Shown here piece by piece: positions 57,488 to 63,584 of a stretch of 64,000 nucleotides of DNA. The notes below the pieces were generated by a model. It did no database searches. It saw only the letters and a program-made list of their open reading frames with translations, and was not told the DNA's origin. The DNA lies in the NCBI RefSeq assembly GCF_054482595.1, contig NZ_CM137008.1. One strand, written 5' to 3'. Numbering within the stretch: the first letter of the stretch is position 1; every line of letters starts with the position of its first letter. The position numbers and the translations under genes are program-made.

Positions 57488-57516
57488 CGCCTATTAACCA
57501 TTCTGGTTATTCTTCA

Positions 57517-57558
57517 TACACCGCAGAGATGTTATATTGATGCGGTGTATTTGTTTTT
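57517..57558 (+). terminator. apbC Rho-independent terminator
   Basis: acaccgca…tgcggtgt stem followed by ATTTGTTTTT. Confidence 0.65.
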
Positions 57559-57748
57559 GCCGCATTAATGAACACTTATTTAATACTGCGAATATTCTGC
57601 GGACCTTCGTCCGAAACTCTACAAAGTCGATTGATCGTACAGGCAATGCTTCATTATCATCCTTCGTGCTGTGTAGTGGATGTACAGCTATAGTTTGTTA
57701 TGCACTCATTCTATCCAGGCATAACCTTTACTACAGGGATAACGTTCA

Positions 57749-58030
57749 ATGAATAAGTATTGGCTGTCAGGAATTATTTTTCTTGCCTATGGATTGGCTT
57801 CTCCCGCGTTCTCTTCAGAGACTGCCACATTAACGATTAATGGCAGGATCAGTCCCCCAACATGCAGTATGGCTATGGTTAATAGTCAACCTCAACAGCA
57901 TTGTGGTCAGTTAACGTATAATGTCGATACCCGTCATCAGGTTTCTTCGCCCGTCAAAGGTGTAACGACAGAAGTGGTTGTTGCAGGTAGTGATAGCAAA
58001 CGTCGAATCGTGTTAAATCGCTACGATTAA
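57749..58030 (+). CDS. yehE: DUF2574-family secreted protein preceding yeh fimbrial genes
   Basis: 93-aa ORF with signal peptide (…LASPAFS/SE). Confidence 0.8.
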   Translation: MNKYWLSGIIFLAYGLASPAFSSETATLTINGRISPPTCSMAMVNSQPQQHCGQLTYNVDTRHQVSSPVKGVTTEVVVAGSDSKRRIVLNRYD

Positions 58031-58322
58031 TTTGGCAACCTGATTTTAATTGCATTTAGAAAGCCGAAATCATTTATATAAATGATTTCGGCTTTTTTAT
58101 TGATATCAACAATACCATTTACATAAATCTACATTAATTAATAGATGCGATAAATATTTAATGCTCTTAAGCATTTGTTGTAATTATATTGCAATGGTTA
58201 ATTTGTTTTAAATCAATAAAACAATATGTTTACATTGCGGTAACTTTTTTGATGTGAGAAATTTGTTTCCAAGAGATACAGACTCTTAACAACCAAAAAT
58301 AAATTTTATTAAGGAACATATT

Positions 58323-58865
58323 ATGAAACATTCAATCATTGCTGCCGCTGTCTTTTCTTCTTTTTTTATGAGCGCTGGAGTATTTGCTGCAGACGTTGAT
58401 ACCGGAACATTAACCATTAAAGGAAATATTGCAGAATCTCCGTGTAAATTCGAAGCGGGTGGTGATTCAGTAAGTATTAATATGCCAACTGTACCAACCA
58501 CTGTCTTTGAAGGTAAAGCTAAATATTCTACCTATGATGATGCAGTCGGTGTAACCAGCAGCATGTTAAAAATTAGCTGCCCGAAAGAAGTTGCTGGTGT
58601 AAAACTCTCGTTGATTACCAACGATAAAATAACTGGTAACGATAAGGCGATAGCCAGTAGCAACGATACTGTGGGTTACTATCTCTATTTAGGTGATAAC
58701 AGCGATGTCCTGGATGTTTCTGCACCTTTTAATATTGAGAGTTATAAAACAGCGGAAGGTCAATATGCTATTCCGTTTAAAGCAAAATACCTGAAACTGA
58801 CAGATAACTCAGTGCAATCAGGTGATGTATTATCTTCTCTGGTTATGCGTGTGGCGCAGGATTAA
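58323..58865 (+). CDS. yehD: Fimbrial major subunit (chaperone-usher pathway)
   Basis: 180-aa ORF with signal peptide, single Cys pair and C-terminal beta-strand typical of fimbrial subunits. Confidence 0.85.
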   Translation: MKHSIIAAAVFSSFFMSAGVFAADVDTGTLTIKGNIAESPCKFEAGGDSVSINMPTVPTTVFEGKAKYSTYDDAVGVTSSMLKISCPKEVAGVKLSLITNDKITGNDKAIASSNDTVGYYLYLGDNSDVLDVSAPFNIESYKTAEGQYAIPFKAKYLKLTDNSVQSGDVLSSLVMRVAQD

Positions 58866-58945
58866 TAAATAAAATTGCAAGTTTCTCCAGGTAATAAACA
58901 TGGCCGCTATCCCCATGGCGGCTTTTTAATTTAAGAGGCATTAAA

Positions 58946-59620
58946 ATGAAAGGATTATCATCTTTACTCATTTTTTCTATGGTCCTTCCTGCACATGCCG
59001 GAATTGTTATCTACGGGACGCGCATTATTTACCCGGCAGAAAATAAAGAAGTGATGGTGCAGTTGATGAACCAGGGAAACCGTTCTTCGCTGCTGCAGGC
59101 GTGGATTGATGATGGCGATACGTCATTACCACCAGAAAAAATTCAGGTTCCTTTCATGTTAACGCCACCAGTGGCAAAAATAGGGGCAAATTCCGGGCAG
59201 CAAGTAAAAATCAAAATTATGCCGAATAAACTGCCCACTAATAAAGAAAGCATTTTTTATCTGAATGTTCTGGATATTCCACCAAATAGTCCAGAACAAG
59301 AAGGTAAGAATGCACTGAAGTTTGCGATGCAAAACAGAATCAAATTGTTTTACCGGCCGGCGGGTATTGCTCCGGTAAATAAAGCGACCTTTAAAAAGTT
59401 ACTGGTAAATCGCAGTGGCAATGGATTGGTGATAAAAAATGACTCAGCTAATTGGGTGACGATTTCGGATGTCAAAGCTAATAATGTCAAAGTCAATTAT
59501 GAAACTATTATGATTGCCCCCTTAGAAAGTCAGAGTGTTAATGTCAAAAGTAATAATGCAAATAACTGGCATCTGACCATTATCGATGACCATGGCAACT
59601 ATATTAGTGACAAAATTTAA
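58946..59620 (+). CDS. yehC: Periplasmic fimbrial chaperone (PapD-like)
   Basis: 224-aa ORF with signal peptide; AAGAGG SD 7 nt upstream; an in-frame upstream extension has no ATG before the stop in this strain. Confidence 0.85.
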   Translation: MKGLSSLLIFSMVLPAHAGIVIYGTRIIYPAENKEVMVQLMNQGNRSSLLQAWIDDGDTSLPPEKIQVPFMLTPPVAKIGANSGQQVKIKIMPNKLPTNKESIFYLNVLDIPPNSPEQEGKNALKFAMQNRIKLFYRPAGIAPVNKATFKKLLVNRSGNGLVIKNDSANWVTISDVKANNVKVNYETIMIAPLESQSVNVKSNNANNWHLTIIDDHGNYISDKI

Positions 59621-59635
59621 TTGCAGGAACTGCCT

Positions 59636-62116
59636 ATGTTGAGAATGACCCCACTTGCATCAGCAATCGTAGCGTTATTGCTCGGCATTGAAGCTTATGC
59701 AGCTGAAGAAACCTTTGATACCCATTTTATGATAGGTGGAATGAAAGACCAGCAGGTTGCAAATATTCGTCTTGATGATAATCAACCCTTGCCGGGGCAG
59801 TATGACATCGATATTTATGTCAATAAGCAATGGCACGGGAAATATGAGATCATTGTTAAAGACAACCCGCAAGAAACATGTTTATCAAGGGAAATTATCA
59901 AGCGGTTAGGCATTAATAGCGATAACTTCGCCAGCGGTAAGCAATGTTTAACATTTGAGCAACTTGTTCAGGGTGGGAGCTATACCTGGGATATCGGGGT
60001 TTTTCGTCTCGATTTCAGTGTCCCGCAGGCCTGGGTGGAAGAACTGGAAAGTGGCTATGTTCCACCGGAAAACTGGGAGCGGGGTATTAATGCGTTTTAT
60101 ACCTCTTATTATGTGAGTCAGTATTACAGTGACTATAAAGCGTCGGGTAATAGTAAGAGTACATATGTACGTTTTAACAGCGGGTTAAATTTACTGGGGT
60201 GGCAACTGCATTCTGATGCCAGTTTCAGTAAAACAAATAACAATCCAGGGGCGTGGAAAAGCAATACCCTGTATCTGGAACGTGGATTTGCCCAACTTCT
60301 CGGCACGCTTCGCGTGGGTGATATGTACACATCAAGCGATATTTTTGATTCTGTTCGCTTCAGAGGTGTGCGGTTGTTTCGTGATATGCAGATGTTGCCT
60401 AACTCGAAACAAAATTTTACGCCACGGGTGCAGGGGATTGCTCAGAGTAACGCGCTGGTAACTATTGAACAGAACGGTTTTGTGGTTTATCAGAAAGAGG
60501 TTCCCCCTGGCCCGTTTGCAATTACAGATTTGCAGTTGGCCGGTGGTGGAGCAGATCTTGATGTCAGCGTGAAAGAGGCGGACGGTTCGGTAACCACCTA
60601 TCTGGTGCCTTATGCAGCCGTGCCAAATATGCTGCAACCCGGCGTGTCGAAATATGATTTTGCGGCGGGTCGTAGCCATATTGAAGGGGCGAGCAAACAA
60701 AGTGATTTTGTCCAGGCGGGTTATCAGTATGGTTTTAATAACTTATTGACGCTGTATGGTGGCTCGATGGTCGCGAATAATTATTACGCGTTCACTTTGG
60801 GGACTGGCTGGAATACACGCATTGGTGCCATTTCCGTCGATGCCACGAAGTCGCATAGTAAACAAGACAACGGCGATGTGTTTGACGGGCAAAGTTATCA
60901 AATTGCCTACAACAAATTTGTGAGCCAAACGTCGACGCGTTTTGGTCTGGCGGCCTGGCGTTATTCGTCGCGTGACTACCGGACATTTAACGATCACGTT
61001 TGGGCAAACAATAAAGATAATTATCGCCGTGATGAAAACGATGTCTATGACATTGCCGATTATTACCAGAATGATTTTGGTCGCAAAAATAGCTTTTCCG
61101 CCAATATGAGCCAGTCATTGCCAGAAGGTTGGGGTTCTGTGTCATTAAGTACGTTATGGCGAGATTACTGGGGGCGTAGCGGCAGTAGTAAGGATTATCA
61201 GTTGAGTTATTCCAACAACCTGCGACGGATAAGCTATACCCTCGCGGCAAGCCAGGCTTATGACGAGAATCATCATGAAGAGAAACGTTTTAATATTTTT
61301 ATATCGATTCCCTTTGATTGGGGTGATGACGTTTCGACGCCTCGTCGGCAAATATATATGTCTAACTCAACGACGTTTGATGATCAGGGGGTTGCCTCAA
61401 ATAATACGGGATTATCAGGAACAGTAGGGAGTCGGGATCAGTTCAATTATGGTGTCAACCTGAGTCATCAACATCAGGGAAATGAAACGACAGCTGGAGC
61501 GAATTTAACCTGGAACGCGCCGGTGGCAACAGTGAATGGCAGTTATAGTCAGTCGAGTACTTATCGACAGGCTGGAGCCAGTGTTTCAGGGGGCATTGTC
61601 GCCTGGTCGGGTGGCGTTAATCTGGCGAACCGTCTTTCCGAAACGTTTGCTGTGATGAATGCGCCAGGAATTAAAGATGCTTATGTCAATGGGCAAAAAT
61701 ATCGCACAACAAACCGTAATGGAGTGGTGGTATACGACGGAATGACACCTTATCGGGAAAATCACCTGATGCTGGATGTGTCGCAAAGCGATAGCGAAGC
61801 AGAATTACGTGGCAACCGGAAAATTGCCGCCTCTTATCGCGGCGCGGTTGTACTGGTTAATTTTGATACCGATCAGCGCAAGCCCTGGTTTATAAAAGCG
61901 TTAAGAGCGGATGGGCAACCATTAACGTTTGGTTATGAAGTCAATGATATCCATGGTCATAATATTGGCGTTGTCGGCCAGGGAAGTCAGTTATTTATTC
62001 GCACCAATGAAGTACCGCCATCGGTTAATGTAGCAATTGATAAGCAACAAGGACTTTCATGCACAATCACCTTCGGTAAAGAGATTGATGAAAGTAGGAA
62101 TTATATTTGCCAGTAA
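59636..62116 (+). CDS. yehB: Outer-membrane fimbrial usher
   Basis: ATG at 59636 gives 826-aa usher-family protein (MLRMTPLASAIVALLLG…). Confidence 0.9.
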   Translation: MLRMTPLASAIVALLLGIEAYAAEETFDTHFMIGGMKDQQVANIRLDDNQPLPGQYDIDIYVNKQWHGKYEIIVKDNPQETCLSREIIKRLGINSDNFASGKQCLTFEQLVQGGSYTWDIGVFRLDFSVPQAWVEELESGYVPPENWERGINAFYTSYYVSQYYSDYKASGNSKSTYVRFNSGLNLLGWQLHSDASFSKTNNNPGAWKSNTLYLERGFAQLLGTLRVGDMYTSSDIFDSVRFRGVRLFRDMQMLPNSKQNFTPRVQGIAQSNALVTIEQNGFVVYQKEVPPGPFAITDLQLAGGGADLDVSVKEADGSVTTYLVPYAAVPNMLQPGVSKYDFAAGRSHIEGASKQSDFVQAGYQYGFNNLLTLYGGSMVANNYYAFTLGTGWNTRIGAISVDATKSHSKQDNGDVFDGQSYQIAYNKFVSQTSTRFGLAAWRYSSRDYRTFNDHVWANNKDNYRRDENDVYDIADYYQNDFGRKNSFSANMSQSLPEGWGSVSLSTLWRDYWGRSGSSKDYQLSYSNNLRRISYTLAASQAYDENHHEEKRFNIFISIPFDWGDDVSTPRRQIYMSNSTTFDDQGVASNNTGLSGTVGSRDQFNYGVNLSHQHQGNETTAGANLTWNAPVATVNGSYSQSSTYRQAGASVSGGIVAWSGGVNLANRLSETFAVMNAPGIKDAYVNGQKYRTTNRNGVVVYDGMTPYRENHLMLDVSQSDSEAELRGNRKIAASYRGAVVLVNFDTDQRKPWFIKALRADGQPLTFGYEVNDIHGHNIGVVGQGSQLFIRTNEVPPSVNVAIDKQQGLSCTITFGKEIDESRNYICQ

Positions 62117-62129
62117 TAGTCAGGTGGTT

Positions 62130-63164
62130 ATGAATATTCGTATAATGTTATTTATAGTAATGATGATGGTTATGCCTGTGAGTTATGCTGCATGTTATGG
62201 CGAGTTGTCAGCACAGCATAATTTGGTTGTTCAGGGGGATTTTGCGCTAACTCAAAATCAAACAGCAACTCATACATATACTTTTAATGATACTTCTTGC
62301 GTCAGTACTAATACAGTAGCGCAGATAGACCCCTCGGATATTGTGATTGGACTCTATAATGACACCATCAAACTTAAGTTGCATTTTGAATGGGAGAAAA
62401 AAGGTAGCATCACGCTTTCAAATAACCAAACTAGTTTTACGAGTGGATATAATGTCACTGTGACATCGGCAGCGAGCGATGCCATAGTGAATTTGTCTGG
62501 TGGGGGAAGTGGATCTCTCATGATTAACAGTGTCGCGACATTAAGCAGTGCTTCATCATCTACTCGTTTGGCTGCTTTTTTACAATTTGCAGGTTGTTTT
62601 CTAGGCGGCACCTCATGGGATATCTGTGTGCAAAACTATAAAAATGCATTATCAAAAAATGCAGGTGTCTATTCCTTTAATCTGGCATTGTCATATAACC
62701 CGATAACAACGACCTGCAAACCTGATGATTTATTAATTACTTTAGAGAGTATTCCAATTTTACAATTACCAACCACAGGTAACAAAGCAACAATAAATAG
62801 CAAAAAAGGGGATATTATTCTGCGCTGTAAAAATTTATTAGGTCAGCAGAATCAAACATCACGGAAAATGCAGGTGTATTTATCAAGTTCTGACTTGTTA
62901 ACCAACAGCAACACAATACTGAAAGGTGCGGAAGATAATGGCGTAGGATTTATTCTTGAAAGTAATGGTTCGCCAGTCACACTTTTAAATATCACTAACA
63001 GCAGTAAAGGATACACAAATTTAAAAGAAATTGCGGCAAAGTCAAAACTTACAGATACAACGGTTTCAATTCCGATAACAGCCAGTTACTACGTCTACGA
63101 TACAAACAAAGTTAAATCTGGCGCACTGGAGGCAACCGCACTAATCAACGTGAAATACGACTAA
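62130..63164 (+). CDS. yehA: Fimbrial adhesin-like / minor subunit
   Basis: ATG at 62130 gives 344-aa signal-peptide protein; track ORF starts upstream inside yehB. Confidence 0.8.
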   Translation: MNIRIMLFIVMMMVMPVSYAACYGELSAQHNLVVQGDFALTQNQTATHTYTFNDTSCVSTNTVAQIDPSDIVIGLYNDTIKLKLHFEWEKKGSITLSNNQTSFTSGYNVTVTSAASDAIVNLSGGGSGSLMINSVATLSSASSSTRLAAFLQFAGCFLGGTSWDICVQNYKNALSKNAGVYSFNLALSYNPITTTCKPDDLLITLESIPILQLPTTGNKATINSKKGDIILRCKNLLGQQNQTSRKMQVYLSSSDLLTNSNTILKGAEDNGVGFILESNGSPVTLLNITNSSKGYTNLKEIAAKSKLTDTTVSIPITASYYVYDTNKVKSGALEATALINVKYD

Positions 63165-63219
63165 TAACAAGCAAGACGAGCAAGTGGCTAATAATAAAAA
63201 ATAACAAGGTGTCTGCATT

Positions 63220-63247
63220 GCCCCCTCATGATGAGGGGGCTTTTTTT
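63220..63247. terminator. Bidirectional terminator between convergent yehA and rcnB
   Basis: gccccctcat/gatgagggggc perfect hairpin followed by TTTTTTT; A-rich on opposite side. Confidence 0.75.
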
Positions 63248-63584
63248 AGCGATGATAAAAAATCTCACCGTCGTAGGCTTTAATGATTTTACCGTCGGTG
63301 TCGCTGATCAACACGTACGCGCCACCCATATAGGTCCAGTGGGTTCCGGCGTCAGGTGCGGGCAGGTTACGTAACTGCCACTGCTTAATGTTGTACTCAT
63401 CGGTTCGGTACATCTCTGGGACGGTATCACCTGGTTTGAAATGCTTAAAGTCAGCAATGAAACTACTTAACTCATACTTAGAAATTCCCGAGGTATTGGT
63501 CGAACCCGCGGTGGCTGGTGCGGCCCAGGCGGCACTGGTAACCAGCAAAAGCGCACCCAGCAACATCTTATTTTTAATGGTCAT
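63246..63584 (-). CDS. rcnB: Periplasmic Ni/Co homeostasis protein RcnB (YohN)
   Basis: ATG at 63584 gives 112-aa signal-peptide protein MTIKNKMLLGALLLVTSAAWA…; track ORF extends upstream. Confidence 0.85.
   Translation of the reverse strand: MTIKNKMLLGALLLVTSAAWAAPATAGSTNTSGISKYELSSFIADFKHFKPGDTVPEMYRTDEYNIKQWQLRNLPAPDAGTHWTYMGGAYVLISDTDGKIIKAYDGEIFYHR

Follow-up and report, generated by a model that had tools for sequence, protein, structure and literature searches.

Sequence analysis of a yehE–yehDCBA locus of Escherichia coli: very probably an intact Yeh fimbrial operon with a separate yehE unit and a rare adhesin allele

Yeh is a core-associated fimbria of Escherichia coli, equivalent to Stc of Salmonella (PMC3559732), and has been placed in the gamma4 clade; structures of its adhesin have been solved, and the adhesin binds pectin (PMC12778044). 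The Yeh locus of O157:H7 Sakai, an allele other than the one considered here, assembles surface filaments when placed under an inducible promoter (PMC7098969). In K-12, yehDCBA is listed as a cryptic chaperone-usher operon of the H-NS regulon, citing the chromatin immunoprecipitation (ChIP) data of Kahramanoglou and of Oshima, and is described, citing Korea et al. 2010, as poorly expressed in the laboratory, functional under a constitutive promoter and repressed by H-NS (PMC5797941). In the present study, we analysed positions 57488–63250 of a 64,000-nucleotide stretch of contig NZ_CM137008.1 (assembly GCF_054482595.1; hereafter the window), in which yehE precedes yehD, yehC, yehB and yehA. 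This locus is very probably an intact chromosomal Yeh (gamma4, Stc-like) chaperone-usher fimbrial operon, in which yehE forms a separate unit, yehDCBA is controlled by H-NS and ArcA, and a hairpin after yehD would favour the subunit. Earlier publications already describe the Yeh operon, H-NS silencing and ArcA repression of it, and the adhesin structure. The most unusual feature of 57488–63250 is a rare allele of the receptor-binding domain (RBD) of the adhesin, which leaves the verdict on the operon unchanged.

The five genes were assigned from Pfam matches and from records of the Prokaryotic Genome Annotation Pipeline (PGAP):

57749–58030, + strand: yehE, 93 aa, Pfam DUF2574 (PF10836), E = 4.1e-52 over profile positions 1–93 of 93, with a signal peptide.
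58323–58865, + strand: yehD, major fimbrial subunit, 180 aa, Pfam Fimbrial (PF00419), 31.2 bits (cut-off 25.6), also annotated by PGAP.
58946–59620, + strand: yehC, periplasmic PapD-like chaperone, 224 aa, PapD_N (PF00345), E = 3.6e-41, and PapD_C (PF02753), E = 3.6e-9.
59636–62116, + strand: yehB, outer-membrane usher, 826 aa, PapC_N (PF13954), Usher (PF00577), E = 3.4e-195, and PapC_C (PF13953).
62130–63164, + strand: yehA, two-domain tip adhesin, 344 aa, with the RBD at 62190–62710 followed by a pilin domain (Pfam Fimbrial, residues 189–344, 77.8 bits).

The listing of open reading frames (ORFs) in the window gave metG on the minus strand, apbC, five plus-strand ORFs and then the convergent rcnB. 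All five ORFs are intact, with apbC on one side and rcnB on the other as in K-12, and PGAP annotation of strain XH990 and of a K-12 derivative places yehE, yehD, yehC, yehB and a fimbrial adhesin (yehA) between the same two genes; the MG1655 reference record agrees on gene order and flanks. Pfam thus recovers what defines a classical chaperone-usher system, namely a two-domain chaperone, a three-domain usher and a Fimbrial-domain pilin with a signal peptide, and the apbC–rcnB site together with high identity to K-12 identifies the fimbria as Yeh. A preliminary description, made from the DNA letters, had proposed a complete subunit–chaperone–usher–adhesin set following apbC, and the Pfam roles, the five intact ORFs and the match of the RBD to PDB 9n4g bear this out. 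The operon has a GC content of 38–46% against 50% for the window and looks horizontally acquired. A megablast search found a match to 57488–63250 in 5,423 of 5,426 complete E. coli genomes, in 5,221 of which a single match covered at least 80% of the region; strain XH990 was 100% identical. One hit (H19, NZ_OZ546956.1) carries an IS1A inserted within the yeh cluster, a natural disruption of the operon in one genome.

The DNA between yehE and yehD contains the following elements:

58031–58322, + strand: yehE–yehD spacer, the yehD control region, 292 bp, 24.3% GC, 96.9% identical to K-12.
58183–58257, + strand: phylogenetic footprint, a candidate core promoter/operator conserved in seven Yeh-type loci, other genera included.
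58204–58246, + strand: box for phosphorylated ArcA (ArcA-P), direct repeats at 11-bp spacing, agreeing in 41 of 43 positions with the K-12 site given in the PMC3798270 supplement.
58310–58322, + strand: yehD Shine–Dalgarno sequence (TAAGGA) and GGA motif of the 5' untranslated region (5'UTR), AAGGA being invariant in the alignment; in EHEC, CsrA binds here (PMC11287998).

The spacer had been described as extremely AT-rich, with phased A/T tracts typical of an H-NS-silenced cryptic fimbrial promoter. Its AT-richness was confirmed: its GC content is 24.3% where the window averages 50.4%, no other 292-bp stretch of the 64 kb is as low, and nowhere else does a stretch of this length fall to 30% GC or below. 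The phasing was not found. Fourier power at 10–11.5 bp was below the shuffle mean in all 12 tests (four indicators, namely AA/TT, tract centres by two definitions and W (A or T) content, over three spans with 500 dinucleotide-preserving shuffles), and 69–97% of shuffles reached or exceeded the observed value. The spacer does hold seven A or T runs of at least 4 nt, as silencing through intrinsic DNA curvature from helically phased tracts would call for, and yet the spacings of the last five are irregular (12, 27, 50 and 9 bp). With no periodicity above the shuffles, such curvature is a very unlikely basis for silencing. Of the features of H-NS-controlled promoters, the spacer thus has the high AT content and lacks phased A-tract curvature, which is often cited and not obligatory. 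A search for the H-NS high-affinity motif TCGATAAATT with up to two mismatches gave three matches in or near the spacer, but the window as a whole has 83 where chance would give about 64; with an AT content this high, the search did not discriminate. Rfam returned only chance-level matches (eukaryotic miRNA and snoRNA models) lying on the palindrome of the yehE terminator, far below gathering scores, and the fold of the yehD leader (58200–58325; z = −1.3) gave no sign of a structured 5'UTR.

The spacer proved to be modular, consisting of a 5' terminator (58059–58098), a variable AT-rich part (about 58100–58180), a conserved core (about 58183–58257) and the 5'UTR. In the alignment, the core is kept in E. 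coli, in loci whose YehE is only 28–45% identical, and at another chromosomal site. Its motifs are ATA(T/A)TGC, an inverted repeat TTGTTTTA-N6-TAAAACAA (58203–58224) and TTTACATTGCGGTAAC (58229–58244). The published K-12 ArcA-P box (2190321–2190363), in reverse complement, corresponds to 58204–58246 of the window and thus falls in the centre of this independently found core; a box of direct repeats inside the control region is what the sequence of an ArcA-P-repressed promoter should contain, and this one is conserved across genera. A direct repeat of ATTTGTTGTAA (58173–58183) and ATTTGTTTTAA (58201–58211), 28 bp apart, was also observed. Both copies resemble ArcA half-sites (TGTTA), the first lying just upstream of the box and the second overlapping its 5' end.

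Published regulatory data agree with this layout. The 78 H-NS-bound ‘promoter islands’ on a published list include the DNA between yehD and yehE (PMC3661553), and the K-12 yeh locus belongs to a silenced stretch with extended protein occupancy (bioRxiv 2024.06.20.599902). Overproduction of SlyA raises yehDCBA 3.6-fold (PMC5797941), and overproduction of BolA raises yehD and yehC (PMC4337573). Furthermore, yehDCBA is among the ArcA-repressed operons, with a value of 5.4 for derepression in the arcA mutant, and its ArcA ChIP-seq peak in K-12 appeared in one replicate only (PMC3798270). In enterohaemorrhagic E. coli (EHEC), CsrA binds the yehD 5'UTR in gel-shift assays (PMC11287998); the CsrA motif in the window 5'UTR, judged by eye, is a partial match. 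The two checks suggested for an H-NS-silenced cryptic promoter, H-NS ChIP and expression in an hns mutant, are therefore both already published for K-12 and support silencing. H-NS binding and repression stand, with the qualification that H-NS is not the sole control, given the ArcA-P box and CsrA.

Several points weigh against this account of the yehD control region. Loss of occupancy alone does not switch on yehDCBA (bioRxiv 2024.06.20.599902), and H-NS is therefore not the whole story. The supplement of PMC3798270 notes ‘no TSS’ (transcription start site) for the operon. Our sigma70 scan returned as many sites as shuffled sequence does and no convincing promoter for yehD on the plus strand, and visual inspection of the conserved footprint did not reveal −35 and −10 elements. 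Within the spacer, the sigma70-like site with the best score, TTTAAA-18-TATAAT at 58183–58212 (10/12), is on the minus strand and points leftwards, antisense to yehE; from its sequence, it would fit the published ‘promoter island’ description. Moreover, all of the regulatory data come from K-12 or EHEC, which are other lineages than that of the window. We place the yehD promoter only provisionally within the spacer, and control by H-NS, ArcA and CsrA may extend from K-12 and EHEC to the window strain.

The relation of yehE to yehDCBA depends on two intergenic features:

58059–58098, + strand: yehE intrinsic terminator, perfect 16–18 bp stem, 4-nt loop and T6, −23.5 kcal/mol, z = −7.2.
57488–57748, + strand: apbC–yehE intergenic region, 261 bp, 39.8% GC, 98.5% identical to K-12.

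The yehE terminator, which the preliminary description had not recorded, begins its stem about 28 nt past the yehE stop codon and has the form of a rho-independent terminator. When seven E. coli lineages are compared, compensatory changes appear in three pairs of the stem and 99% of cells are paired, a level reached by none of 500 shuffles. Hairpins of unrelated sequence lie 3' of the DUF2574 gene in the related loci L006, L007, L008 and L010. In four loci, a distant DUF2574 gene stands directly upstream of a four-gene Fimbrial–PapD–Usher–adhesin operon, with a spacer of 269–275 bp and 29–31% GC; in L008/L009, it adjoins the operon in divergent orientation, at another chromosomal site. The strong, covarying terminator makes yehE most likely its own transcription unit, which the arrangement of these loci suggests to be a conserved companion of Yeh-type operons rather than a cistron of yehDCBA. 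Within the apbC–yehE region, an inverted repeat of 10 bp with a 15-nt loop followed by the T-rich run TTTGTTTTTG (57516–57550) lies 29 nt past the apbC stop codon and probably terminates apbC. A candidate yehE promoter, sigma70-like and weak, is found at 57631–57660.

If yehE instead opened an operon of five genes, yehEDCBA, read from a promoter between apbC and yehE, the AT-rich spacer would be merely internal. All of the genes point the same way, with yehE invariably next to the operon; a preprint writes of the ‘yehEDCBA operon’ (bioRxiv 2024.06.20.599902), and the EHEC expression construct started at the yehE start codon (PMC7098969). However, this arrangement is unlikely in view of the very stable covarying terminator 3' of yehE, the hairpin that follows the DUF2574 gene in every related locus, the divergent orientation in L008/L009, and the position of the ArcA-P box and conserved footprint between yehE and yehD. 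The studies of SlyA, ArcA and EHEC also take yehD as the first gene (PMC5797941, PMC3798270, PMC11287998).

Downstream of yehD, two further hairpins bear on the expression of the operon:

58902–58928, + strand: yehD–yehC hairpin and T-tract, candidate partial terminator or 3' stabiliser, stem-loop at 58902–58923.
63220–63247, + strand: yehA terminator, 9-bp GC-rich stem and T7, −18.5 kcal/mol, z = −3.4, just downstream of the convergent rcnB.

The stem-loop at 58902–58923 has nine pairs, two of them G-U, a 4-nt loop and a free energy of −13.3 kcal/mol, and is followed by UUUUUAAUUU. The preliminary description had noted a weak hairpin with T5 after yehD, which would give more subunit than assembly machinery; hairpin and U-tract are present, and ‘weak’ does not suit a conserved 9-bp stem. 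Across seven E. coli lineages, the stem is either unchanged or strengthened, with a loop of 3 or 4 nt; in the O157-type allele, one G-U pair has become G-C. An unrelated hairpin occupies the equivalent subunit–chaperone position in four of five distinct related loci scanned, none being reported for L006. It is plausible that the hairpin sets an excess of YehD over the assembly proteins. On the other side, its z-score against shuffles is −1.9, by itself barely above chance, and the O157-type allele keeps the stem without the T-tract, so that simple intrinsic termination is disfavoured as the conserved function. In EHEC, the yeh locus is recovered by RT-PCR as one transcript crossing the yehD–yehC junction, and read-through therefore occurs (PMC11287998).

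The same transcript, with the persistence of the stem while loop and downstream tract vary, and the lack of a T-tract in the O157-type allele and after the L010/L011 hairpin, would suit a role as a 3'-end stabiliser. The hairpin would then shield processed yehD mRNA from exonucleases, and subunit excess would arise through differential decay. Differential stability of the major-subunit mRNA is known in other fimbrial operons such as pap, which also speaks for this possibility. In the window, K-12 and most aligned lineages, however, the stem is directly followed by T4–5 AATTT, as fits an intrinsic terminator, and no processing site was identified; stabilisation without termination is possible, though less likely than not. 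Part of the hairpin sequence has also been read as coding. The preliminary description mentioned a longer YehC N-terminus in K-12, and this is real in the reference record: in MG1655 (NC_000913.3, b2110), yehC has 720 nt (239 aa), against 675 nt (224 aa) in the window and in the PGAP records. The K-12 start is an ATG in the left arm of the yehD–yehC hairpin, giving a 15-codon extension. A genuine 15-residue N-terminal extension encoded by 58900–58945, to which the hairpin would be incidental, could draw on this annotation and on the presence of the exact K-12 form of the segment in 1,881 of 5,426 genomes. In the window, however, an extra C in the hairpin loop shifts the extended frame, which ends at a TAA after nine codons, and APEC O2 and ETEC4079 likewise have the 4-nt loop, with which the extended frame is closed. 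The ATG at 58946 is preceded by a conserved AAGAGG, begins a typical signal peptide and is used by PGAP, giving 675 nt, even in the K-12 derivative, and distant YehC homologues start at the equivalent Met. An extension of this kind is extremely improbable; because the upstream ATG falls within the hairpin and its frame is shifted in the window, the 239-aa K-12 form is probably an annotation artefact, 15 residues too long, whereas the 224-aa ORF is the conserved one.

Considering these results, the locus could work as follows. Transcription of yehE alone would stop at the 58059–58098 terminator, and yehDCBA would be transcribed from the approximately 220 bp of very AT-rich DNA that follows. H-NS would cover and silence this control DNA as in K-12, ArcA-P bound to the 58204–58246 core would repress yehDCBA under anaerobic conditions, and overproduction of SlyA or BolA would lift expression. 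CsrA would bind the yehD 5'UTR near the Shine–Dalgarno sequence. The yehD–yehC hairpin and U-tract would end, or stabilise the 3' end of, part of the transcripts, yielding more major subunit than chaperone, usher and adhesin, and the remaining transcripts would read through to the terminator at 63220–63247.

The adhesin gene departs from the rest of the locus in its divergence from K-12, expressed below as nucleotide identity and synonymous divergence (dS), with the ratio of non-synonymous to synonymous divergence (dN/dS) for the first part of yehA:

62190–62710, + strand: divergent RBD allele of yehA, rare, about 75–77% nucleotide identity to the common allele.
apbC, yehE, yehD, yehC and yehB against K-12: 97.2–98.7% nucleotide identity, dS 0.05–0.12.
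yehA, whole gene, against K-12: 84.9% nucleotide identity, dS 0.48.
yehA codons 1–193 (signal peptide and RBD) against K-12: 76%, dS 0.97, dN/dS 0.17.
yehA pilin domain against K-12: 96%, dS 0.13.

Residues 21–193 of YehA match PDB 9n4g over its full length without gaps (E = 2e-79). This entry, the RBD of a ‘YehD protein’ in the uropathogenic E. coli naming of Tamadonfar et al. 2026, corresponds to K-12 YehA. Both cysteine pairs and the highlighted residues S49, W143, Y150, N113, S162 and N164 are kept in the window protein, whereas about a quarter of RBD residues are changed, many of them in the alpha-helical flap segment, and R151 is replaced by K. The common RBD allele was found in more than 4,500 genomes and the window allele, at no less than 98% identity, in only 23 of the 5,426 complete E. 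coli genomes; its carriers came from humans, poultry, pigs, a baboon, an otter, a frog, a deer and river water. The high dS and low dN/dS point to an old, anciently diverged RBD allele brought in by recombination rather than to recent positive selection. A protein search with the window RBD returned only fragments of the common allele and no donor lineage. PGAP does not name the adhesin gene of the window yehA.

At the apbC–rcnB site of E. coli O157:H7 Z1486 (L015, 3655–7180), the operon is only about 85% identical to that of the window; the annotation gives its yehB as a pseudogene carrying an internal stop, and its adhesin, possibly the one called ‘Yhl’ in the 2026 structural paper, has an RBD unrelated in sequence. 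Together with the common Yeh RBD and the unrelated O157:H7 RBD, the rare RBD of the window might bring the receptor specificities of this locus to three. Such an allele could escape gene-presence surveys with strict identity thresholds. Only about half of E. coli genomes are said to encode the Yeh adhesin gene (PMC12778044), and alleles missed in this way might bear on that figure, a link that is only conjectured.

The role of YehE itself was approached through profile comparisons. Residues 1–45 of YehE are homologous to the N-terminus of the YehD family (hhalign, 97% probability, E = 9e-11), the shared stretch comprising the signal peptide, a TATLTINGRI motif and the first cysteine; beyond residue 45, no match to the YehD family was found. 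YehE had no PF00419 hit and hence no full Fimbrial domain, and without its signal peptide it has only about 71 residues. Its C-terminus is an invariant IVLNRYD, in which Tyr is penultimate as in the pilin domain of the adhesin. Because hhalign against the YehA family found nothing, this ‘...YD’ resemblance to YehA amounts to a short motif only. In a profile search of 1.84 billion representative proteins, the DUF2574 family was small, with 34 proteins at E ≤ 0.001, the majority being roughly 90 aa long or shorter fragments, and a 181-aa pilin-like protein matched the YehE N-terminus only. Five proteins of 1,000–2,600 aa (P0091, P0094, P0098, P0102 and P0104) matched the region of the DUF2574 N-terminal motif in 4–13 repeated stretches and may be large repetitive adhesins reusing a similar strand motif. 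Structure prediction was unusable both for YehE (AlphaFold2, 7-sequence alignment, predicted local distance difference test (pLDDT) 43.8) and for a YehC–linker–YehE fusion (nine paired rows, pLDDT 51.9, with the chaperone N-domain below 50).

The retained pilin N-terminus, the IVLNRYD tail and the cross-genus adjacency to a Yeh-type operon, even when inverted, raise the idea that YehE is no bystander but a pared-down pilin derivative that the Yeh chaperone-usher machinery handles as a client, with the shared N-terminal stretch as a putative donor-strand region. We regard this idea as doubtful. If it is true, YehE could cap, anchor or inhibit growth of the Yeh fibre, or titrate the chaperone. 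In one genome of about 6.2 Mb (L004/L005, 1185–7001), a solitary DUF2574 gene has no fimbrial operon nearby; the adjoining 5.8 kb lacks any ORF above 110 aa and might be the relic of a decayed operon, or else an rRNA operon.

The closest relative of the locus is K-12 yehDCBA (b2111–b2108) with yehE (b2112), with which it shares the chromosomal site (metG–apbC/rcnB), the gene order and the PGAP protein lengths. Nucleotide identity is 97.2–98.7% over apbC, yehE, yehD, yehC and yehB (98.5% for yehB) and 96.9% over the control spacer, and the yehE terminator is identical. The two loci differ in the RBD half of yehA, which is about 75% identical in nucleotides and roughly three-quarters identical in protein over the mature RBD (residues 21–193), and in the loop of the yehD–yehC hairpin, which has 4 nt in the window and 3 nt in K-12. 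As with the intergenic stem-loops of fimA–fimI and papA–papH, a stable hairpin directly follows the gene for the major subunit and precedes those for assembly. The very AT-rich region upstream of a low-GC operon is a trait shared with H-NS-bound ‘promoter islands’ and the cryptic fimbrial promoters of yad, sfm, elf/ycb and fim, from which the yeh tract differs in bearing a 5' terminator and a cross-genus core of about 75 bp that coincides with the ArcA operator. The AT-rich spacer of the Yeh locus is thus to be understood as a terminator, a variable filler, a conserved ArcA operator and a 5'UTR, rather than as a curved element of phased A-tracts.

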